Below the pieces are notes generated by a model. The model was not told where the DNA came from and did no database searches. It saw only the letters and a list, made by a program, of their open reading frames with translations. Positions 5,497 to 50,495 of a stretch of 64,000 nt of DNA are shown in pieces; within the stretch, counting starts at the first letter, position 1; the number at the start of each line of letters is the position of its first letter. Source of the stretch: an uncultured Bdellovibrionales bacterium (GTDB taxonomy: Bacteria; Bdellovibrionota; Bdellovibrionia; Bdellovibrionales; JAEYZS01); the NCBI GenBank assembly GCA_964469265.1, contig CAYXYF010000004.1:35958-99957 (forward strand), given 5' to 3'. Made by a program: the position numbers and the translations under genes.

Positions 5497-5580
5497 GCCC
5501 GGGTGGTGGAATGGCAGACACGCTAGACTTAGGATCTAGTGCCGAGAGGTGTGCAGGTTCAAGTCCTGTCCCGGGTACCA
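5497..5580 (+). tRNA. tRNA-Leu (anticodon UAG)
   Basis: Folded by hand. Acceptor stem GCCCGGG/CCCGGGT (G1-U72 wobble). Anticodon stem CTAGA/TCTAG with loop CTTAGGA (anticodon TAG). Long variable arm. T arm GCAGG-TTCAAGT-CCTGT. Discriminator A and an encoded CCA. Confidence 0.93.
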
Positions 5581-24498: not shown

Positions 24499-25530
24499 AT
24501 GGCAAAAAACTTTGCAAGCGATAACAATTCGGCTGCGCTTCCTGAAATGTTAAAATCTATTGAGCGTGTTAATGTGGACCACGTACATGCCTACGGGGGC
24601 GATGAGTATACAGCTTCTGCTGTAAAAAAGTTTAAAGAGTTTTTTGGAAACGATATCGATGTCCACTTTGTATTTAATGGAACAGCGGCAAACGTGTTAG
24701 CAATTAAAGCTTTTTTAAAACCTTATGAGGCAGTTTTATGTGCTGAGACATCGCATCTTCACATGGATGAGTGTGGCGCTCCTGAAGCCTTAACAGGTTG
24801 TAAGCTAAGATTGCTTCCTTCAAAAGATGGAAAAATAAAAATTGAAGATTTGGAAAAACAGTACGTGCGAATGGGAGATCAACATTACTCTCAGCCTAAA
24901 ATGATATCTATAACTCAGCCTACGGAATACGGAACCGTCTATTCAGTTGAGGAAATGAGAGCGATTAGTAGATGGGCCAAAGACCACGATATGTTTTTTC
25001 ATGTAGACGGATCAAGGTTTCCCAATGCGGCTGTGAGTTTGGGAAAATCGTTTAAAGAAATCAGCAAAGATGTCGGAGTTGATGTTTTGTCTTTTGGTGG
25101 AACAAAGAACGGCTTGTTGCTGGGTGAAGCAGTTATATTTTTTAATACCGAGTTTTCAAAAGATTTTAAATACTACCGCAAACAACTTCTGCAACTTGCT
25201 GGTAAAATGCGCTTTATCTCATGCCAATTTGAAGAGTATTTATCAAACGACCTATGGAAGAGAACCGCTGAACATTCTATTGCCATGGCAAAGATTTTAA
25301 GATCAAAACTTTCTGAAATTCCAAAAGTAGAAATCACGCAGAAAACCGAAAGCAATGTTGTTTTTGCAAAGTTCCCGAGAGATTGGGTAAAGCCACTCAA
25401 AGAAAAATATTTCTTCTATGTTTGGGATGAAAACACCTATGAAGTCCGCCTTATGACAACCTTTGATACCACAGAAGAGCAAATTAACGACTTCGTCGCG
25501 GTCGCTAGAGAACTTTCGAAAAAGTCATGA
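24499..25530 (+). CDS. ltaE: Low-specificity L-threonine aldolase
   Basis: FASDNNS...GTAANVLA...FGGTKNG (PLP-lysine motif), typical of the threonine aldolase / beta-eliminating lyase family. Confidence 0.75.
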   Translation: MAKNFASDNNSAALPEMLKSIERVNVDHVHAYGGDEYTASAVKKFKEFFGNDIDVHFVFNGTAANVLAIKAFLKPYEAVLCAETSHLHMDECGAPEALTGCKLRLLPSKDGKIKIEDLEKQYVRMGDQHYSQPKMISITQPTEYGTVYSVEEMRAISRWAKDHDMFFHVDGSRFPNAAVSLGKSFKEISKDVGVDVLSFGGTKNGLLLGEAVIFFNTEFSKDFKYYRKQLLQLAGKMRFISCQFEEYLSNDLWKRTAEHSIAMAKILRSKLSEIPKVEITQKTESNVVFAKFPRDWVKPLKEKYFFYVWDENTYEVRLMTTFDTTEEQINDFVAVARELSKKS

Positions 25531-38308: not shown

Positions 38309-39280
38309 ATGACGACTGTTCTCATCCGCATGGATAAAATCGGAGATCTTATCTTAACACTGCCAGTGGATCAGGTCTTCCTGCCAACCCAACAGGTGGT
38401 GTGGTTTATTAGTCGCGGTTTAGAATACTTTCCCACAAGTGCGTCTCCTAAACGACAGTTTCATAGTTTTTCAAAAAAGTTTAGCTGGAAAGACTTCAAG
38501 CAAATGGTGTCGACCTTAAGAAGCCTGCGGCCGAGCCAAGCCATTATTTTTCATGCTCCCTGGTGGGTGGGACTTGCGCTTTGTATAGCGGGGGTGCCAA
38601 AAAGGATTGGAGTTCGAAGCAAGCCCCACTCTTATATATTCTTTAATAGGTCTTTAAGGCAGAAGCGGAGCCGGGCGCAGAAGCATGAAGCTGAATATGG
38701 GCTAGAGCTTGTTCGCTTAGCGCTCGGGCAAGGTTTTGATTTTCATGGTTTAGAGCCGTTGAAGCTAAAAAGCTCCCTTGATAAAAACGAACTCAAGGGC
38801 TTCGGTGTTTCAGACCACTATATAGTCGTCCATCCTGGGATGGCAGGCTCAGCGCTAAACTGGCCAGCACAAAAATACATTCAATTTATCAGATACTTTT
38901 CAAAGACTTATGACGTTGTAATAACATGTGGACCCAATGATCATAGTATCGTTAATCCCATTGCCGAGGCCCTTAAGGAAAATTCGAAAGTAAAGGTACT
39001 AACGGGGTTGAGCTTCGATCAACTCACCTTGGTCCTTGAAAACGCTAGGGGAGTTCTTGCTCCAAGTACTGGGGTGGTCCATATGGCGGCATCCGTAGGA
39101 GTGCCCACCCTTGGAATTTATAGCCCAGTGGGAGTTGAGCGGGCCATCCGCTGGGGACCACGAGGGTCAAAGGTTCATACTTTGACACCAGAAACGAAAA
39201 ATAATACCTTCGACCCTCAAACTGTCATGGACAGCTTAGGGGCTGATCAGGTCATAAATAAGTTTAAGGAAATGCTATGA
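38309..39280 (+). CDS. Glycosyltransferase family 9 (LPS heptosyltransferase-like)
   Basis: VLIRMDKIGDLILTLP at the N-terminus and APSTGVVHMAASVGVPTLGIYSP near the C-terminus are GT9 hallmarks. Confidence 0.7.
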   Translation: MTTVLIRMDKIGDLILTLPVDQVFLPTQQVVWFISRGLEYFPTSASPKRQFHSFSKKFSWKDFKQMVSTLRSLRPSQAIIFHAPWWVGLALCIAGVPKRIGVRSKPHSYIFFNRSLRQKRSRAQKHEAEYGLELVRLALGQGFDFHGLEPLKLKSSLDKNELKGFGVSDHYIVVHPGMAGSALNWPAQKYIQFIRYFSKTYDVVITCGPNDHSIVNPIAEALKENSKVKVLTGLSFDQLTLVLENARGVLAPSTGVVHMAASVGVPTLGIYSPVGVERAIRWGPRGSKVHTLTPETKNNTFDPQTVMDSLGADQVINKFKEML

Positions 39281-40278
39281 GCATCGATGCAAAAAAATTA
39301 GAACAATACATCCAGCAATTTGCGAAAAAGAAAATCATGATCGTTGGTGATATTGGACTCGATGAATACGTCAACGGTGCCGTAAAAAGAATCTCTCCAG
39401 AGGCCCCAGTTCCTGTCGTTGAGGTCCATGCTGAGGAGCAACGGCTGGGTCTTGCAACCAACGTTGCACAAAACATCGTAAGCCTTGGTGGAACCCCTGT
39501 TTTGGTTTCTGTTATCGGAAATGATTATGCTGGAGACCAGCTCAAAAAGCTCCTACGAGAAGCCAATGTTTCTGATGAGTATCTTATTTCAGATAAAAGC
39601 AGGCCAACCACAAAAAAACTTCGAGTCATGTCTGAGCATCATCACGTTGTTCGGGTTGATTTTGAACAAAAGCGATTTTTAGATGCAGAAATTGAGGCAA
39701 AAGTACTTTCTCAAGTCGAGGCTCATATTTCAGAGTGCGAAGGTATCATCATTCAAGACTACGCGAAGGGAATCTTCTCTGAAAAGTTAATTCAAGATGT
39801 TGTTCGAGTTGTGAAAGCTCATAAAAAGAAAGTGATTGTAGATCCGCACCGCAATACACCGATTGAGTATTACAGAGGCGTTGATCTTATGACTCCGAAT
39901 GCGGAAGAGGCGATTTTGCTCAGCCGTCTTCCAGTCGATGATTTACGAGGGGTATCCGAGTCTTTTGCTGAAGTGGGTGACGCTTTGATGAAAGCGATCG
40001 GTTCTCCACAGATGGTCGTAACTCGAGGAAAAGAAGGCATGACCTTCTTTGAGAATGGAAAATCTGAAACCGTTCCTACCGTTGCTCGTGAAGTTTTTGA
40101 TGTCACTGGGGCTGGAGATACCGTTGTTGCGGCGATGACGCTTGCTTGGTGCTCAGATATTTCTCTTAAAGAAAGCTGTCTCATTGCAAATCATGCGGCA
40201 GGAGTGGTTGTAGCCAAAATTGGTTGTGCAACTTGTGATATACAAGAACTCACTCACTCTTTTGCAAATAATTCTTAG
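39277..40278 (+). CDS. hldA: D-glycero-beta-D-manno-heptose-7-phosphate kinase (RfaE domain I / HldA type, kinase only)
   Basis: KIMIVGDIGLDEYVNG...ISPEAPVPV at the N-terminus and DVTGAGDTVVAAM (ribokinase-family motif). 333 aa with no adenylyltransferase domain. Confidence 0.8.
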   Translation: MSIDAKKLEQYIQQFAKKKIMIVGDIGLDEYVNGAVKRISPEAPVPVVEVHAEEQRLGLATNVAQNIVSLGGTPVLVSVIGNDYAGDQLKKLLREANVSDEYLISDKSRPTTKKLRVMSEHHHVVRVDFEQKRFLDAEIEAKVLSQVEAHISECEGIIIQDYAKGIFSEKLIQDVVRVVKAHKKKVIVDPHRNTPIEYYRGVDLMTPNAEEAILLSRLPVDDLRGVSESFAEVGDALMKAIGSPQMVVTRGKEGMTFFENGKSETVPTVAREVFDVTGAGDTVVAAMTLAWCSDISLKESCLIANHAAGVVVAKIGCATCDIQELTHSFANNS

Positions 40279-42824: not shown

Positions 42825-43628
42825 ATGAGCGGAAAATCTAAAAAGAAAACAAAAGACGATTTAGCTGATTTTTTTCTGGGCAACGACCAAACAAAATCAG
42901 TTAAAACAAATGACAAGACATCGGTGTTGGCTCCAGTTGAGGACAACACAAAGTCGCTCTCTGTCAAAAAAGCCACGACAAGCGAAATTAGTAAAAAAGA
43001 TATTTCAAGCGACCCATCACTGTTCTCTTTAGAGGCAGCACTGAAACAATCTGAATATTTGAAGGTTGCGCAGAGTAAGGTGAATTCCTTAGAAAAACAG
43101 ATCGATACGTTAAAGTCTGAAAACGAAGTGCTTTCTGCTTCTGCAATTGTTTTAAAGAAGAAGTATGAAGAGATGACTGCGAAATTTGAATCTCTGCTCG
43201 AGGAACAGCGAGCGAAGATAACTATTTTAACTGAAGACCTTGAACATAAGTCTCATGTTATTGGGGAGCTTGAAAAGAAAAATCATAAAATCCAGAGTAG
43301 CAACGAAGAATTTAAGCTTCTCGTCGACGATAAGTTGCAGCAGGTTCGGGTGAAAGAACGTGAACTTCAAAATCGTCTTGAAATTTTACAACATGAGGGC
43401 GATGTGGTCATCACGAGCAAGGATGAGACTATTCTTGACCTCAAAAAACAAATGGATCAAATGAATTTTGAACTAGATAGTTATAAGGCTCAGAGTAAGG
43501 ATTTAAATCAACAGATTCAAAACCTCAAAGATCAAATTCGCCGTGGAGCGAAGGCTTTAAGAGCAGCTTTGGGTGCGCTTGAACAAGAGAACATCAAGAT
43601 CGAAGAACTTAAGAAAACAGGGACGTGA
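42825..43628 (+). CDS. Coiled-coil protein (first gene of the GGDEF operon)
   Basis: 267 aa. A basic, disordered N-terminus is followed by about 190 aa of heptad-like Leu/Glu/Lys-rich sequence (LEKQIDTLKSENEVL...LQNRLEILQHE...IQNLKDQI). No TM segment or signal peptide. Confidence 0.6.
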   Translation: MSGKSKKKTKDDLADFFLGNDQTKSVKTNDKTSVLAPVEDNTKSLSVKKATTSEISKKDISSDPSLFSLEAALKQSEYLKVAQSKVNSLEKQIDTLKSENEVLSASAIVLKKKYEEMTAKFESLLEEQRAKITILTEDLEHKSHVIGELEKKNHKIQSSNEEFKLLVDDKLQQVRVKERELQNRLEILQHEGDVVITSKDETILDLKKQMDQMNFELDSYKAQSKDLNQQIQNLKDQIRRGAKALRAALGALEQENIKIEELKKTGT

Positions 43629-43636
43629 AGTGAACA

Positions 43637-44596
43637 ATGAGAAATGTTAAAGCGGTTAAAACATTCATCGATAATTTAGGGCGCTTAGAAAAAAGTATTC
43701 TGAAAAGTAAAAGCCCTAAACACTATAAGGAAGTTTTGGAGTTCTTCAGAGATGAGCTTTTAGTTGATCAGGCGTTCATCTGGCGAGAACAAGTTGCAAT
43801 TCCGCAACCTGGAAGAGATGGCGAACCACTGCGACAGAAGTTTTTAGCCATTCACAAGACCTCGTTAGAGGAATTTTCAGTATACTGTAAAAAATTTGAG
43901 CGCGTGAATTTTTCAACCGCCATGCACTTTGATGAAAATCTATTATATATGAAGCTTACGGCAGATAACGGAGAGCATTTTTGCTTTGCAATCAAGGGCT
44001 ACCCTGTCTTTTTAAAAAAGGATGAGGTCTGTGCACATATGTTTGTAAAGCGGATGGCTGGGTTGATGAATATGATCGATACCTTAGATGAAATTCAAAC
44101 CATGAACTTTGAAGATGACGTCACGGGGCTATACAATCAGCGATATTTGAATATTCTGTTAGATCAAGAAATCGAACGGTATAAGAGATCCAATGTTTCT
44201 TTTAGCGTTTTATTTATTGATGTCGACCATTTTAAAATGGTTAATGATAAAAACGGTCATATGGTAGGATCGCAGGTACTCAAAGAAATTGGCCAAATTA
44301 TAAAAAAGAGCGTACGCACCGTTGATTTTTGCTTTCGATATGGCGGTGATGAGTTTTTAACTGTCTTAACTTCAACTACGACCGAGCAAGCAACAGCAGT
44401 TGCAAACAGAATATGTAGAAGTGTGAGAGAAACACCGTTTATTGTCGATGGAAAGAGAGTACAAGTGACTTTAAGTATCGGTGTGGCATGTTTTCCCGAA
44501 CACGCACAGACGAAAGAAAAAATACTACAAGTTGCCGACGAAGCAATGTATTGTGGGAAGAATTTAAGTCGCAATGTTGTCTATTTGGCTAGTTAA
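43637..44596 (+). CDS. GGDEF-domain nucleotide cyclase with Ser at the Hypr selectivity position; N-terminal domain of unknown type
   Basis: FIDVDHFKMVNDKNGHMVGSQVLKEIG...VRTVDFCFRYGGDEF. The GGDEF active site and the RxxD I-site are intact. The residue after GHxxG is Ser rather than the canonical Asp. Confidence 0.85.
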   Translation: MRNVKAVKTFIDNLGRLEKSILKSKSPKHYKEVLEFFRDELLVDQAFIWREQVAIPQPGRDGEPLRQKFLAIHKTSLEEFSVYCKKFERVNFSTAMHFDENLLYMKLTADNGEHFCFAIKGYPVFLKKDEVCAHMFVKRMAGLMNMIDTLDEIQTMNFEDDVTGLYNQRYLNILLDQEIERYKRSNVSFSVLFIDVDHFKMVNDKNGHMVGSQVLKEIGQIIKKSVRTVDFCFRYGGDEFLTVLTSTTTEQATAVANRICRSVRETPFIVDGKRVQVTLSIGVACFPEHAQTKEKILQVADEAMYCGKNLSRNVVYLAS

Positions 44597-45685
44597 GTGA
44601 AAATCATGAGAAGAATAAAACTTGTTGTTAGTGATCTACATGTCGGTGCTGGCAAAGTTCTAGAGGATGGAAACATCAACTCTTTAGAAGAGTTTTATTA
44701 TGATGAGCGTTTTGCCGAGTTTCTTAATTACTACACGACAGGTGAATATGCGGATGCAGAAGTAGAACTCATTCTCAATGGGGATATCTTAAACTTATTG
44801 CAAGTCGATTATCGTGGACACTTTCTTTCAGTTATTACGGAGTCGATAACTGTAGATATCGTAAAAAAAATTGTAGACGGACATCCAATTTTTTTTAATG
44901 CCCTTAAAAACTTTGCAAAAAATACTAAAAACAGCATCACGTACGTTGTTGGTAACCATGATCAAGGTATGCTCTGGCCGCAAGCTCGGGAATACTTAAA
45001 TCTAGTGGTAGGAACAACAATACGGTACCGAAATATTGTTTATTACTTTGATGGCGTGCACATTGAGCACGGACACATGCATGAGCCCGCTAACAGAATT
45101 GACCCGAAGAAATTTTTCATTAAGAAAGAATATCCTACTCCGATATTAAATCTGCCTTTTGGATCCTTCTTTTTCGTAGAATTTGTACTTCGTATTAAGA
45201 AGGTGAATCCCCATGTAGACAAGGTTCGTCCTTTTAAAGCAATGATGAGGTGGTCACTTTTGCAGGAACCCAAGTTCCTGATTATCACTACAGTTAAGCT
45301 TTATAAGTTCATGTTTGACTCGATTTTTTCTTCCGATCCAAGAAAGCGTTACCCATGGAAGCAGATTATAAAGATTTTCTTGGAGCGATCCATCTTTCCA
45401 GATCTGGATGTGGCAGCAAAAAAAATCTTAAAGGATGACAGAGTCCATACAGTAATCTTTGGGCACAACCACGTTTATCGTTACCGCCAGTGGTTGAAAG
45501 GAAAACAATACTTTAATACTGGCACATGGACAGAGTTAACATCTCTTGATGTGGGATCCTTCGGAAAGCTCACTAAATTGACCTATGTTGTTTTGGATTA
45601 CCCTGAAGGTGCGAACCAACCCATGGCTCGTCTTAAGGAATGGAAGGGTTACCACAGAATCCAAGAAGACGTTGACGTCACTTAG
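44597..45685 (+). CDS. Calcineurin-like metallophosphoesterase
   Basis: The ordered motifs SDLHVG, NGDILN, GNHDQG, EHGH and FGHNHV make up the MPE signature. Its GTG start directly abuts the GGDEF stop (alternative ATG at 44606). Confidence 0.75.
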   Translation: MKIMRRIKLVVSDLHVGAGKVLEDGNINSLEEFYYDERFAEFLNYYTTGEYADAEVELILNGDILNLLQVDYRGHFLSVITESITVDIVKKIVDGHPIFFNALKNFAKNTKNSITYVVGNHDQGMLWPQAREYLNLVVGTTIRYRNIVYYFDGVHIEHGHMHEPANRIDPKKFFIKKEYPTPILNLPFGSFFFVEFVLRIKKVNPHVDKVRPFKAMMRWSLLQEPKFLIITTVKLYKFMFDSIFSSDPRKRYPWKQIIKIFLERSIFPDLDVAAKKILKDDRVHTVIFGHNHVYRYRQWLKGKQYFNTGTWTELTSLDVGSFGKLTKLTYVVLDYPEGANQPMARLKEWKGYHRIQEDVDVT

Positions 45686-47338: not shown

Positions 47339-48547
47339 ATGTTTGAATTTTCACAAATCACGAGAAAAAATTCCACAGTTCCCAACGTTAACGGGGCTTA
47401 TGAATCTGTACTGCAAGAGATGCCTGGCTTTGTAAGGGTTCTAGAAGACGAAACCCTTTTAAAAAACTGTATACAAAGAGCCAATGAAGTACGCAAAGAT
47501 TTTGACCAGTTAGTTGTCTTAGGAATTGGCGGGAGTTCTCTTGGTGCAAAGGCCATAGTCGATGCATTTGATTGCTCAGAGAAGGTACTATTCTTTGAAA
47601 ACTTGGATTCATTTGCTTTTGATAGAAGGTTAAGTCGATTAAAAAAGCTTCAGCGAATTCACTGGGTCGCGATTTCAAAAAGCGGCACTACGATTGAAAC
47701 TTTAACCCAGCTTCAGTTTATTGATCAGCACTATAAAGATAATAACTTAAATCTCGCTGCTCAAATGACAGTCGTTACCGAGATGAAGCCAAGTCCTTTA
47801 TTTGATTTCGCTAAAGAAAATAACATTTCTATCTTGGAAATTCCGTTGGATGTGGGTGGACGTTTTTCAGTATTAACGGCAGTGGGACTTTTTCCAGCTG
47901 TATTTGCGGGATTAAATGCAGATGATTTTATTGAAGGTGCAAAAGAAGCTCTTTTACATAAAGAACAGCTAGAAGAGTTTTGTGCTCAGATGTTGATGAG
48001 CTTTGATAATAAAGAATGGATCACTGTTTTTTGGTCGTACTCAGAATCTTTAAAGACTTTTGCGCATTGGTTTCAGCAACTTTGGGCGGAGAGCTTAGCA
48101 AAAAAGGTTACCCTTGATTCTAAACCCGCGCCAAGAGTCAGTAGCCCCATGGTCATGTTAGGTTCAAATGATCAGCACTCGATGCTTCAGCAGGTCATGG
48201 ATGGGGCGCGTGATAAGTTTATAATTTTCTTAAGCTCGGAGCGCGAAGAGACCTCAGGTTCAAAGTTAAAAAATGTTTTATTCCCGAATTATACGTTCCT
48301 TCAAAACAAAAGCATGGGACTTGTTTATGAGGCTCAATGTATTGGAACTCAAAAGGCATTAAAAGAGCAAGGCGTGCATTCTGCCACACTGCGCTTAACA
48401 AAATTTGATGAAAAGGAATTAGGGGCAATGTTCTTTTTCTTTGAAGTGGCTGTCGCAATGCTTGGTAAAATCCATAATATTGATACCTACAATCAACCTG
48501 GCGTAGAACTGTCTAAGAAACTCACTTTAGCCCAACTTAAAGTCTAG
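47339..48547 (+). CDS. pgi: Glucose-6-phosphate isomerase (short bacterial type)
   Basis: VVLGIGGSSLG, AISKSGTTIET and GGRFSVLTAVGL motifs. Confidence 0.85.
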   Translation: MFEFSQITRKNSTVPNVNGAYESVLQEMPGFVRVLEDETLLKNCIQRANEVRKDFDQLVVLGIGGSSLGAKAIVDAFDCSEKVLFFENLDSFAFDRRLSRLKKLQRIHWVAISKSGTTIETLTQLQFIDQHYKDNNLNLAAQMTVVTEMKPSPLFDFAKENNISILEIPLDVGGRFSVLTAVGLFPAVFAGLNADDFIEGAKEALLHKEQLEEFCAQMLMSFDNKEWITVFWSYSESLKTFAHWFQQLWAESLAKKVTLDSKPAPRVSSPMVMLGSNDQHSMLQQVMDGARDKFIIFLSSEREETSGSKLKNVLFPNYTFLQNKSMGLVYEAQCIGTQKALKEQGVHSATLRLTKFDEKELGAMFFFFEVAVAMLGKIHNIDTYNQPGVELSKKLTLAQLKV

Positions 48548-48604: not shown

Positions 48605-49525
48605 ATGTCAGCAGATGAAGAAAGCGGCGAAAAGACGAGCGTCGTATCCAGTGAAACTTTTAAAATTAGAATGTCGGAAGCAAGAAATGCTCCGCCCGCT
48701 CTGGTTTTGTTGATGGGGCCTCCTGCGCTTATCGGAAAACAATGGTCCATTGAAAAATCCGAGTATACGATTGGTCGAAGTCCTGATAGCCAAATTTTTG
48801 TAGAAGACCGAAGTGTTTCGAAGCGACATGCAAAGGTGAAATTAGAGGGTGGCGATGTTTATATTGTGGATATCGGCTCTACAAACGGAACGGAAGTTTC
48901 TAACGAGAGAATCCCGCCAGATTCTCTACGAAAGCTTGCAAACAACGAACAGATTAAAGTTGGAAGCGTTATCTTTAAATTCCTTGAACAAGGAAATATT
49001 GAAACCGTTTCCGCACGTTCGACGTTTGATAAAACACAAATTGATCCCTTAACTCAAATTTTTAACAAGGGTGCTTTGCTTTCACAAGGTGAAGAAGTTT
49101 TTAAAAAGGCAAAGATCGCACAGATGTCTTTGTCAGTTATTGTTTTTGATTTAGATAACTTTAAGAAACTAAACGATACCTATGGCCACCAAGCTGGTGA
49201 TTATGTCTTAAAAGAAATGGCCGAGGCTGTTTCGTCTAAACTCATCCGTAAAGGTGACTTCTTTGCACGGTTTGGCGGCGAAGAGTTTTGCCTCATATTG
49301 CTTGGAAGTAATTTGCAAAAAGGCATTGAGGTCGCAGAGCGTATCCGTGCGACAATTGAAAGCCATCCGTTCGTCTACAAAGATCAAAAATTGACCGTTA
49401 CAGTCTCAGCAGGTGTTGCATGTTTAGAGGGGGCAATGCAATCTTGGAATGAGCTTTTTGAAAAAGCAGATCAGGCCTCTTACGAATCGAAGAAAAATGG
49501 TAAAAACCGAGTCTCGACAATTTGA
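48605..49525 (+). CDS. FHA-domain diguanylate cyclase (Bdellovibrio DgcB-type architecture)
   Basis: The FHA region reads YTIGRSPDSQIFVEDRSVSKRHAKV...VDIGSTNGTEV. The GGDEF domain has DLDNFKKLNDTYGHQAGDYVL, the I-site RKGD and the active site GGEEF. Confidence 0.85.
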   Translation: MSADEESGEKTSVVSSETFKIRMSEARNAPPALVLLMGPPALIGKQWSIEKSEYTIGRSPDSQIFVEDRSVSKRHAKVKLEGGDVYIVDIGSTNGTEVSNERIPPDSLRKLANNEQIKVGSVIFKFLEQGNIETVSARSTFDKTQIDPLTQIFNKGALLSQGEEVFKKAKIAQMSLSVIVFDLDNFKKLNDTYGHQAGDYVLKEMAEAVSSKLIRKGDFFARFGGEEFCLILLGSNLQKGIEVAERIRATIESHPFVYKDQKLTVTVSAGVACLEGAMQSWNELFEKADQASYESKKNGKNRVSTI

Positions 49526-50495
49526 ATTTCCACATTTCCTAGAGATCAAGATAGAGCAATTTTTAAAGGCGCTTGGACTATCGTTGCTCGATGACAGGAA
49601 AATTGCAGCAGCAGTACAGCAAATGTCTGACTTCTACATCGAAAACCCAGATGGTTCCACCCCTTGGAATGAAAAGTGGGCTCAGGTTGCTCAGGCTGCT
49701 TATTACTTCCCATTAAATTATTTGCGTGCCCAAGCGGTGATCGACGAAGCGGTACGCGTGAAGTTCTTTACAGATATTAATTCTTTTTGTGAAGTAGGAA
49801 GTGGCTTGGGTGCACTCACGGCTCACCTTAGTGAGAATGTTTCTAAAGGTTACAGTATTGAGGTCGCCGCAACTGCTATTGAGATTTATAAAAGACTATT
49901 TCCAGAATCTCATCTCAACTTTCTTACCAAGAGCTTAGACAAACCTGTGGATCTTTTTGCGTTTTCATATGTGCTAACGGAGCTTCCTGGAATTCCCAGA
50001 GCGGCTTACGAATCAGAAGCGATTTTAGTCATCGAGCCTTCGACCCAGTCTGATGGCAGAAGGCTTATGGAATTAAGACAAGACCTTATTGCGCGCGGTT
50101 ACCAAATGTGGGCGCCTTGCACACATCAACTGGGCTGTCCGCTTCTTCTTCATTCGAAGAGAGACTGGTGCCATGATCGTATTCATTTAAAAATGCCAGA
50201 CTGGTTTTTAAACATTGAAAAGCATTTGAAATTTAAAAACAGGACCGTGACCTTCTCATACCTACTTGCGAGAAAAACCAGCCCAGAGACTTCGCTCAAC
50301 AAGGGGCGGATCGTTGGAGATATGTTAAAAGAAAAAGGAAAAACGCGAATTATGATTTGTCGACAAGACGAACGCGAATTCCTTAGTTGGTTAAAAAAGG
50401 ATAAGTTCGATATTGAACTTCATCGGGGAGACCTTTTAGACCTTGACTTGCCTTTTGACAAAAAGTCCTCAGAGCTGAGGCTTCGGAAGAAGTAG
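49497..50495 (+). CDS. Rsm22-like SAM-dependent methyltransferase
   Basis: SAM motif I-like EVGSGLGALT and the C-terminal Cys/His cluster CTHQLGCPLL...WCHD, as in Rsm22-family proteins. Start chosen at ATG 49497, which overlaps the upstream gene by 29 nt. Confidence 0.5.
   Translation: MVKTESRQFEFPHFLEIKIEQFLKALGLSLLDDRKIAAAVQQMSDFYIENPDGSTPWNEKWAQVAQAAYYFPLNYLRAQAVIDEAVRVKFFTDINSFCEVGSGLGALTAHLSENVSKGYSIEVAATAIEIYKRLFPESHLNFLTKSLDKPVDLFAFSYVLTELPGIPRAAYESEAILVIEPSTQSDGRRLMELRQDLIARGYQMWAPCTHQLGCPLLLHSKRDWCHDRIHLKMPDWFLNIEKHLKFKNRTVTFSYLLARKTSPETSLNKGRIVGDMLKEKGKTRIMICRQDEREFLSWLKKDKFDIELHRGDLLDLDLPFDKKSSELRLRKK

Follow-up and report, generated by a model that had tools for sequence, protein, structure and literature searches.

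A 64,000-nucleotide (nt) stretch of contig CAYXYF010000004.1 from an uncultured Bdellovibrionales bacterium (hereafter the window; coordinates of open reading frames (ORFs) are window positions) contains three tightly packed genes that encode, in this order, a coiled-coil (cc) protein, a GGDEF-domain cyclase and a calcineurin-like metallophosphoesterase (MPE). Comparison with related loci revealed the cc–MPE pair as the constant core of a conserved gene cluster and the GGDEF gene as an insert, present in approximately half of the loci and bearing the sequence signature of Hypr enzymes, which produce cGAMP (3′,3′-cyclic GMP–AMP). An original prediction for this locus had proposed a self-contained module that makes and breaks, or acts through, a cyclic dinucleotide. 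We favor a wider reading, in which the trio would be the local form of a conserved Bdellovibrionota signaling cluster of the invasive cell pole—composed of a polar adaptor, a Hypr cyclase and a locally signal-removing MPE—and put the probability of this explanation as a whole at roughly 45%. The genomic association is well supported, hydrolysis of a dinucleotide by the MPE is plausible, and a make-and-break module at the invasive pole is a reasonable hypothesis derived from synteny only.

The three ORFs lie on the same strand (Table 1) with the coordinates originally given, including an 8-nt gap between the cc and GGDEF genes (43629–43636). The GGDEF gene terminates with TAA at 44594–44596 and a GTG follows immediately at 44597; alignment of orthologues places the conserved initiator methionine of the MPE at ATG 44606, yielding a protein of 359 amino acids (aa), and the second gap is therefore either 0 or 9 nt. 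As judged from this alignment, ATG 44606 is the more likely start, so that the absence of a second gap, as first proposed, holds for GTG 44597 but not for the ATG. The string AAGTGAA was found 4–5 nt upstream of both this ATG and that of the GGDEF gene (43637), and is possibly a common ribosome-binding signal. Downstream, the trio is closed by a convergent gene, which shares 4 nt with the MPE gene at the stop codon of the latter. A consensus scan for promoters and terminators gave little information, returning fewer promoter-like sites than in shuffled sequences and no plus-strand terminator inside the trio.

Related loci were retrieved from one genome per species (80 loci) and, by a profile led by a distant family member, from metagenome contigs (80 loci). 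ORFs were called and classified by BLASTP against the window proteins; 168 loci were classified, genome and metagenome loci not being de-duplicated against each other, and in 11 of the 168 the upstream sequence was too short to assign an arrangement. Where the MPE was at least 55% identical to the window protein, 61 loci had the order GGDEF–MPE (cc seen in 54), 50 had cc–MPE and none had any other. At 43–55% identity, a tier without taxon labels, the corresponding numbers were 17 (cc seen in 12), 11 and 2, and below 43% they were 0, 2 and 14. The GGDEF gene was thus located between the cc and MPE genes in 78 loci and, whenever present, always in that place. Junctions were tight throughout: from the GGDEF stop to the SDxH motif of the MPE, which lies ~11 codons into the protein, the median distance was 36 nt (78 loci), and from the cc stop to the GGDEF start it was 0 nt (66 loci). 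The trio arrangement is far beyond chance, and the synteny check suggested with the original prediction showed the three-gene order to be strongly conserved in related genomes.

In close relatives, the block reads rlmN, pfkB, cc, (GGDEF), MPE, (pgi) and FHA-GGDEF. B. bacteriovorus has the order cc (435 aa), MPE (379 aa, 63% identity), pgi and FHA-GGDEF, with no GGDEF gene between cc and MPE; in the literature these four genes are Bd0739 (cc), Bd0740 (MPE), Bd0741 (phosphoglucose isomerase) and Bd0742 (DgcB), and they carry consecutive locus tags (RS17630 to RS17645). Orthology of the window genes to Bd0739, Bd0740 and DgcB can be assumed with high confidence. The DgcB orthologue of the window lies 3 kb downstream of the trio, and in 90 of 116 close loci it follows the MPE by at most two genes; that a second, different cyclase is encoded downstream of the MPE supports a tie to signaling. 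It also means that the module is not self-contained, as had been supposed, but belongs to a larger cluster ending in the FHA-GGDEF gene dgcB.

Loci of the 43–55% tier lack rlmN, pfkB and pgi as neighbors, and only 3 of 34 have DgcB. As the cc–MPE pair survives there amid different surroundings, it represents the core of the cluster, and linkage in this tier is not just inherited collinearity. A reading of the gene order as inherited collinearity of three functionally uncoupled products would draw on the housekeeping genes rlmN, pfkB and pgi in the same block and on the dispensability of the GGDEF gene in many lineages. We consider it quite improbable, given that the cc–(GGDEF)–MPE order persists in the 43–55% tier where all surrounding genes differ, that at most loci neighboring reading frames abut or overlap at their start and stop codons, and that the GGDEF, constant in its place, never has Asp at its selectivity position.

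The cc protein yielded only weak coiled-coil-type matches in Pfam and NCBIfam, and its conserved part is confined to the C-terminal ~190-aa coiled coil. BLASTP aligned it with the 435-aa B. bacteriovorus protein encoded directly upstream of the MPE (35% identity, 112 bits), and a cc gene occupies the same position at 139 related loci. Both features used to define the Bd0739 family were found, namely a homologous C-terminal coiled coil and a gene directly upstream of a Bd0740-type MPE. In B. bacteriovorus, Bd0739 was the top match in RomR proximity labeling, was recruited by RomR in a heterologous POLAR assay and, in newborn attack-phase cells, formed foci at the invasive pole that co-localized with RomR (PMC11025332). 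The RomR proxisome additionally comprised c-di-GMP (cyclic di-GMP)-binding proteins and Bd2325, a phosphodiesterase of cGAMP and c-di-GMP; DgcB fell marginally above the false discovery rate cut-off (PMC11025332). Transposon insertions in Bd0739 and Bd0742 abolished predation, with attachment, killing and rounding all lost; Bd0740 does not feature in those transposon tables, and the Bd0739 insertion could have been polar on dgcB (PMC6561027). The earlier suggestion that the cc protein acts as a scaffold or localization factor agrees with this published association of Bd0739 with RomR at the invasive pole (PMC11025332).

The GGDEF domain spans aa 160–313 of the cyclase (PF00990, E = 2e-44). Its N-terminal ~155–159 aa matched nothing in Pfam and hence do not contain a receiver domain of the kind found in GacA and Bd0367. 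Hypr enzymes carry Ser or Thr at the selectivity position (PMC9140294, PMC6456294), and those with Ser/Thr exclusively have GGDE[F/Y], Ser combined with GGEEF being inactive—the ‘Goldilocks’ rule (PMC6456294). In published Hypr enzymes, Tyr, Ser, Ala or Gln at the cross-dimer site goes with mainly cGAMP as the product, and Arg, the guanine-stacking residue of canonical diguanylate cyclases, with more c-di-GMP. The window cyclase follows all three published sequence rules (Ser212, GGDEF, non-Arg Gln168). Ser212, at the position of PleD D344, together with a canonical GGDEF and an intact I-site bears out the Ser-variant assignment made originally. The best match among solved structures was the Hypr GGDEF of Geobacter metallireducens GacA (6d9m, E = 3e-45), compared with E = 2.5e-31 for the best canonical diguanylate cyclase; PDB entries 6zxb, 6zxc and 6zxm we take to be Leptospira DgcR.

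The same features recur throughout the locus family. Where readable, the selectivity residue was Ser in 68 proteins; six had Thr, a single one Gly and none Asp. The signature motif was GGDEF or GGDEY except for one AGDEF, and RxxD was present in 73 of the 78 GGDEFs scanned. At the cross-dimer site, 51 close orthologues carry Gln and distant ones have Thr, Ala or Pro; Arg never occurred there. The neighboring FHA-GGDEF orthologues served as an internal control and carried Asp in 62 of 65 cases, with the motif GGEEF. In the 43–55% tier, the locus gene encodes a 450–515-aa receiver–linker–GGDEF protein, i.e. the GacA architecture (PF00072 above threshold in L088, L123 and L145), whereas closer relatives have a degenerate receiver (L003) or none at all (forms of 285–350 aa, including that of the window). 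GGDEF matches of 316–340 aa proved to be further members of the locus family. As Ser or Thr but never Asp, GGDE[F/Y], the lack of Arg and GacA as best match all coincide, the window cyclase is very probably a Hypr GGDEF capable of making 3′,3′-cGAMP. Two loci have short, atypical GGDEF-only proteins (183–202 aa) between cc and MPE (L134, 5299–5907; L143, 891–1442), one with Gly at the selectivity position and the other with AGDEF and GHLAAS. A GGDEY string at 24595 of the window falls inside a beta-eliminating lyase and was dismissed as a chance match.

For the MPE, all five superfamily motifs (DxH, GDxx(D/N), GNH(D/E), H and GHxH) were recovered as originally listed, and PF00149 matched with 27.4 bits (cut-off 21.5). 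Pfam returned Metallophos and Metallophos_2 only and no EAL, HD-GYP, DHH-DHHA1 or HD domain, NCBIfam no model at E ≤ 0.01, and single-sequence and profile searches of PDB sequences no real match; the family is one without a solved structure. Orthologues 58–87% identical to the window MPE all came from Bdellovibrionales or Pseudobdellovibrionaceae genomes, with the nearest species representatives at 83–87%, and 1716 relatives were found at E ≤ 1e-3 among 1.8 billion cluster representatives, many of them full length at 28–45% identity. The metal ligands D13, H15, D63, N120, H158, H290 and H292 vary little or not at all across 85 diverse family members, and the same holds for H121 and D122. Because the ligands are so conserved, the MPE is, as judged from its residues, an enzyme and not a pseudo-enzyme scaffold.

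An AlphaFold2 model built on the alignment of those 85 members reached a mean confidence (predicted local distance difference test, pLDDT) of 95 and a predicted TM-score (pTM) of 0.93. It comprises the MPE sandwich and a five-helix insertion, which occupies ~90 aa (188–278) and separates motif IV (H158) from motif V (GH290NH292). Foldseek searches of the PDB ranked purple acid phosphatase, the PolD small subunit and GpdQ (fourth, E = 3e-7) close behind the first match, LpxH of P. aeruginosa. PPP protein phosphatases were absent from the top 50. PPP-type Ser/Thr phosphatases are marked by the signatures GDxHG, GDxVDRG and GNHE, none of which is present in the MPE, whose own motifs read SDLHVG, NGDILN and GNHDQ. 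No cyclic-dinucleotide-binding motif was identified in the MPE either. A first model from 22 close orthologues (pLDDT 66), with SbcD/Mre11-like matches, was superseded by the pLDDT 95 model. An SbcCD-like combination of coiled coil and MPE nuclease was likewise discarded, as the cc protein lacks an ATPase head and the good model prefers LpxH. The MPE is also not the LpxH of this cell: it has GNHDQ where E. coli LpxH has GNRDF, an hhalign probability of 7.6% and no NCBIfam match, and B. bacteriovorus possesses a separate lpxH in an ftsA-ftsZ-lpxH operon (PMC12448681).

Taken together, we propose that the cc protein, by analogy with Bd0739, for which docking was shown, most probably attaches to the RomR hub of the prey-invading pole and may serve as an adaptor tethering cyclase and MPE. 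The cyclase is predicted to make mainly 3′,3′-cGAMP and some c-di-GMP. Its signal input would have changed in this lineage, the ancestral receiver having been lost and a ~155-aa N-terminal domain without a Pfam match left in its place. The MPE combines a complete two-metal site with a helical lid, is presumably translated together with the cyclase and is always found with the cc gene; its most likely role would be to hydrolyze the signal locally, either the cyclic dinucleotide or its linear product pNpN, which would restrict both production and clearance to the pole. Hydrolysis of a nucleotide signal is the weakest step, deduced as it is from gene linkage only, and a dinucleotide as the substrate is less likely than not.

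Several observations weigh against this explanation. Nothing experimental or structural ties the MPE to nucleotides, and B. bacteriovorus already has a cGAMP phosphodiesterase in the HD-GYP protein Bd2325. The Hypr call derives from sequence features, and the receiver of GacA and Bd0367 is missing from the window protein. In 61 loci, among them those of all Bdellovibrio sensu stricto, the GGDEF gene is absent and the cc–MPE pair is still retained with roughly 60% identity; conservation of the MPE in the absence of an adjacent GGDEF argues that it is independent of that cyclase, a point qualified by the Hypr enzyme Bd0367 being encoded elsewhere in B. bacteriovorus. The unrelated housekeeping genes pgi, pfkB and rlmN embedded in the cluster imply that gene order here is not always functional, and the phenotype of the Bd0739 transposon insertion may be due to polar effects on dgcB. 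LpxH was the first Foldseek match of the MPE model (E = 4.5e-8; TM-score on the target 0.45–0.52), and the insertion helices are hydrophobic (aa 188–244) and located at the site of the LpxH lipid-binding lid. Finally, MPE relatives below 43% identity adjoin envelope and lipid genes, with no cyclase. Their neighbors encode CDP-alcohol phosphatidyltransferase (L087, L163), FadL-like porins (L089, L152), flavin amine oxidases (L142, L152, L155), an ArnT-like glycosyltransferase (L132), UDP-glucose dehydrogenase (L156) and membrane transporters (L090, L146), while KdsB-like cytidylyltransferases (PF02348) follow the cc–MPE pair in L139 and L169; the latter two loci hint at an envelope link of cc–MPE outside the Bdellovibrionales. 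The suggestion of the original prediction that the MPE may be a hydrolase or effector of the cyclase product is left with gene order as its support, set against the 61 GGDEF-less loci and these distant contexts.

The LpxH-like fold, the hydrophobic insertion and the distant gene contexts raise the main alternative, namely that the MPE acts, with LpxH-like chemistry, on a phosphodiester or pyrophosphate linked to the envelope or to lipid, that the cc protein brings it to the pole, and that the cyclases either regulate it, making the MPE an effector, or are just co-expressed with it. High conservation of the MPE where the GGDEF gene is gone would also fit. We regard this alternative as unlikely: the distinctions from LpxH given above apply (GNHD rather than GNRD, hhalign, NCBIfam, a separate lpxH), the LpxH TM-scores are modest, and purple acid phosphatase and GpdQ score almost equally well.

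One distant relative departs from the envelope pattern. On a sponge metagenome contig (L091, 1186–7366; MPE 42% identical), the order is cc, MPE, FHA-GGDEF, PilZ, PhoH and a PilT/T2SSE-like ATPase, with the FHA-GGDEF gene directly abutting the MPE and PilZ, a c-di-GMP receptor domain, next to it. This adjacency, along with the linkage of MPE and FHA-GGDEF in 90 of 116 close loci, could equally be expected if the MPE were a phosphoprotein phosphatase that resets the phospho-Thr read by the FHA domain of DgcB (Meek et al. 2019), leaving the Hypr GGDEF as a second, independently regulated cyclase. Such a role has already been suggested in print, where Bd0740, described as calcineurin-like and placed in the dgcB operon, is called a ‘putative phosphatase’ and considered as a possible brake on DgcB (PMC6733907, Meek et al. 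2019). We deem it improbable, as the MPE motifs lack the PPP signatures and no PP1, calcineurin or lambda-type phosphatase appeared among the top 50 fold matches; moreover, 31 of the 34 loci of the 43–55% tier are without FHA-GGDEF, most of them still cc–MPE or cc–GGDEF–MPE, and the MPE hence does not depend on DgcB. The Discussion of the same paper assigns bd0740 to ‘PFAM PF10049 calcineurin-like family’, which looks like a typo, the matching family here being PF00149 (PMC6733907).

Weighing these alternatives, we retain the polar cyclase–MPE cluster as our preferred reading. Its furthest extension—that Bd0740-type MPEs are a new intracellular cyclic-dinucleotide class (cGAMP/c-di-GMP phosphodiesterases or dinucleotide-controlled effectors), which would form a self-contained polar unit with a Hypr cyclase and a RomR-binding adaptor, ancestral in Bdellovibrionota and rearranged in B. 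bacteriovorus—is rather unlikely.

Table 1. Positions of the trio, its diagnostic residues and motifs, and neighboring features in the 64,000-nt window
Feature	Position	Strand	Remarks
Coiled-coil (cc) protein gene	42825–43628	+	267 aa; Bd0739 orthologue; N-terminus low-complexity
Hypr-type GGDEF cyclase gene (predicted)	43637–44596	+	319 aa; PF00990
Cross-dimer residue Gln168 (LYN-Q-RYL)	44138–44140	+	Corresponds to GacA Y304 by 6d9m alignment
Selectivity residue Ser212 (GHMVG-S)	44270–44272	+	Corresponds to PleD D344, GacA S348, Bd0367 S214
RxxD I-site RTVD (aa 227–230), five-residue spacer, GGDEF (aa 236–240)	44315–44356	+	
Metallophosphoesterase (MPE) gene	44597–45685	+	362 aa from GTG 44597; Bd0740 orthologue; PF00149
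MPE motif SDLHVG	44630–44647	+	
MPE motif NGDILN	44777–44794	+	
MPE motif GNHDQ	44951–44965	+	
MPE motif EHGH	45065–45076	+	
MPE motif GHNH	45461–45472	+	
ORF, 308 aa	45682–46608	-	Signal-peptide-like N-terminus
ORF, 197 aa	46617–47210	-	Signal-peptide-like N-terminus
Phosphoglucose isomerase gene (Bd0741 orthologue)	47339–48547	+	Reciprocal BLAST to related-locus phosphoglucose isomerase; Pfam PGI in L001, L003
FHA-GGDEF cyclase gene, DgcB (Bd0742) orthologue	48605–49525	+	PF00498 and PF00990; Asp at selectivity position, GGEEF
Rsm22-like methyltransferase ORF	49449–50495	+	PF09243; longest-ORF start
Family-9 heptosyltransferase and pfkB-type kinase genes	38309–40278	+	4-nt overlap
tRNA-Leu	5497–5580		

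The two minus-strand ORFs that follow the trio matched nothing in Pfam or NCBIfam and are not found in most related loci, where pgi or dgcB directly follows the MPE gene; in L005, the same place is taken by an ORF 32% identical to the 308-aa one. The pair is lineage-specific and ends the transcription unit of the trio in this genome. With a Ser-type cyclase in the trio and an Asp-type DgcB orthologue beyond pgi, two cyclases of differing predicted product specificity are encoded within 6 kb of the window. Taken from its longest-ORF start, the Rsm22-like methyltransferase gene shares 77 nt with the 3′ end of the DgcB gene, and its true start probably lies further downstream. Just upstream of rlmN, the heptosyltransferase gene is followed by a pfkB-type kinase gene that is RfaE-like by position, and these lipopolysaccharide core genes belong to the conserved block.

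Neither EAL (EALxR, DDFGTG) nor HD-GYP (HHExxDGxGYP, GxGYP) motifs were detected in any window frame of at least 100 aa by regular expressions only, a weak test but consistent with the original prediction, which had recognized no gene of either type in the 64 kb. An Rfam scan of the window for RNA elements found no c-di-GMP or cGAMP riboswitch and only a tRNA-Leu, the sole RNA gene found in the window. Cumulative GC skew climbs almost monotonically over positions 1–64000 and most genes lie on the plus strand, consistent with a single replichore.

The cluster appears to add a second, abundant Hypr-signature cyclase family in Bdellovibrio-like bacteria, and it lies near the invasion cyclase DgcB. 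It offers three concrete candidates for keeping cGAMP and c-di-GMP signals separate and local during prey invasion, suggests a testable function for Bd0740 and would account for the position of bd0739. If the MPE does act on dinucleotides, a cytoplasmic MPE class would join the cyclic-dinucleotide phosphodiesterases. To our knowledge, signaling by GGDEF-made 3′,3′-cGAMP has been described in very few systems (Geobacter GacA, Myxococcus and Bd0367), and cGAMP receptors and turnover enzymes are mostly not known beyond riboswitches and a few HD-GYP proteins.

Compared with bd0739-bd0740-bd0741-bd0742 (dgcB) of B. bacteriovorus, in which DgcB is the prey-invasion cyclase, the window has orthologous cc, MPE (63%), pgi and FHA-GGDEF genes in the same order, but differs in the GGDEF gene between cc and MPE, in the two extra opposite-strand genes before pgi and in a cc protein that is 168 aa shorter at its N-terminus than Bd0739. 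The original prediction knew of no described pairing of a GGDEF protein with such a phosphoesterase; placement of bd0740 in the dgcB operon had in fact been mentioned (PMC6733907). Our literature search turned up neither a description of a GGDEF gene placed between genes of the bd0739 and bd0740 types nor an assay of Bd0740.

With GacA (GSU1658) and Bd0367 (DgcA), the window cyclase shares Ser/Thr selectivity, the restriction to GGDE[F/Y], a non-Arg cross-dimer residue and RxxD. It lacks the receiver of both, has Gln at the cross-dimer site rather than the Tyr of GacA and is encoded between cc and MPE genes, a setting not described for those two. Bd0367, reported as the sole cGAMP synthase of B. 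bacteriovorus, governs gliding exit from prey; it was compared by its published features, and the locus GGDEF may be its orthologue or a paralogue.

Among phosphoesterases, LpxH has an MPE core with a helical insertion between motifs IV and V, as does the window MPE, and JGI labels family members LpxH; the window protein, however, exceeds LpxH by 120 aa, its five-helix insertion is far larger, and it has GNHD for GNRD. CpdA, Rv0805 and GpdQ share the motif set DxH, GD, GNHD, H and GHxH, but act on cyclic mononucleotides or glycerophosphodiesters, have no helical insertion and gave no sequence-level match to the MPE. HD-GYP cGAMP phosphodiesterases (V-cGAP1–3, Bd2325 and PmxA) fill the turnover role proposed here for the MPE with an unrelated fold, and none was seen in the window. 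The original prediction had counted only EAL, HD-GYP, DHH-DHHA1 and HD proteins among cyclic-dinucleotide phosphodiesterases; that list was incomplete, as CpdB, CdnP and SntA have the MPE fold and hydrolyze cyclic dinucleotides outside the cytoplasm (PMC4905662, PMC8981391). These three resemble the window MPE in their calcineurin-like dinuclear metal domain, which hydrolyzes c-di-AMP (cyclic di-AMP), c-di-GMP or 3′,3′-cGAMP. Unlike it, they are secreted or wall-anchored and combine the MPE domain with a 5′-nucleotidase C domain; the window protein is single-domain, apparently cytoplasmic and fitted with a helical lid, and no sequence kinship with them is detectable beyond the superfamily. Hypr GGDEFs, MPEs and the Bd0739 to Bd0742 neighborhood are thus known kinds, while a large Hypr-signature GGDEF family between Bd0739- and Bd0740-type genes, cc–MPE as an ancient core and loss of the GGDEF gene in the model species appear not to have been described before.

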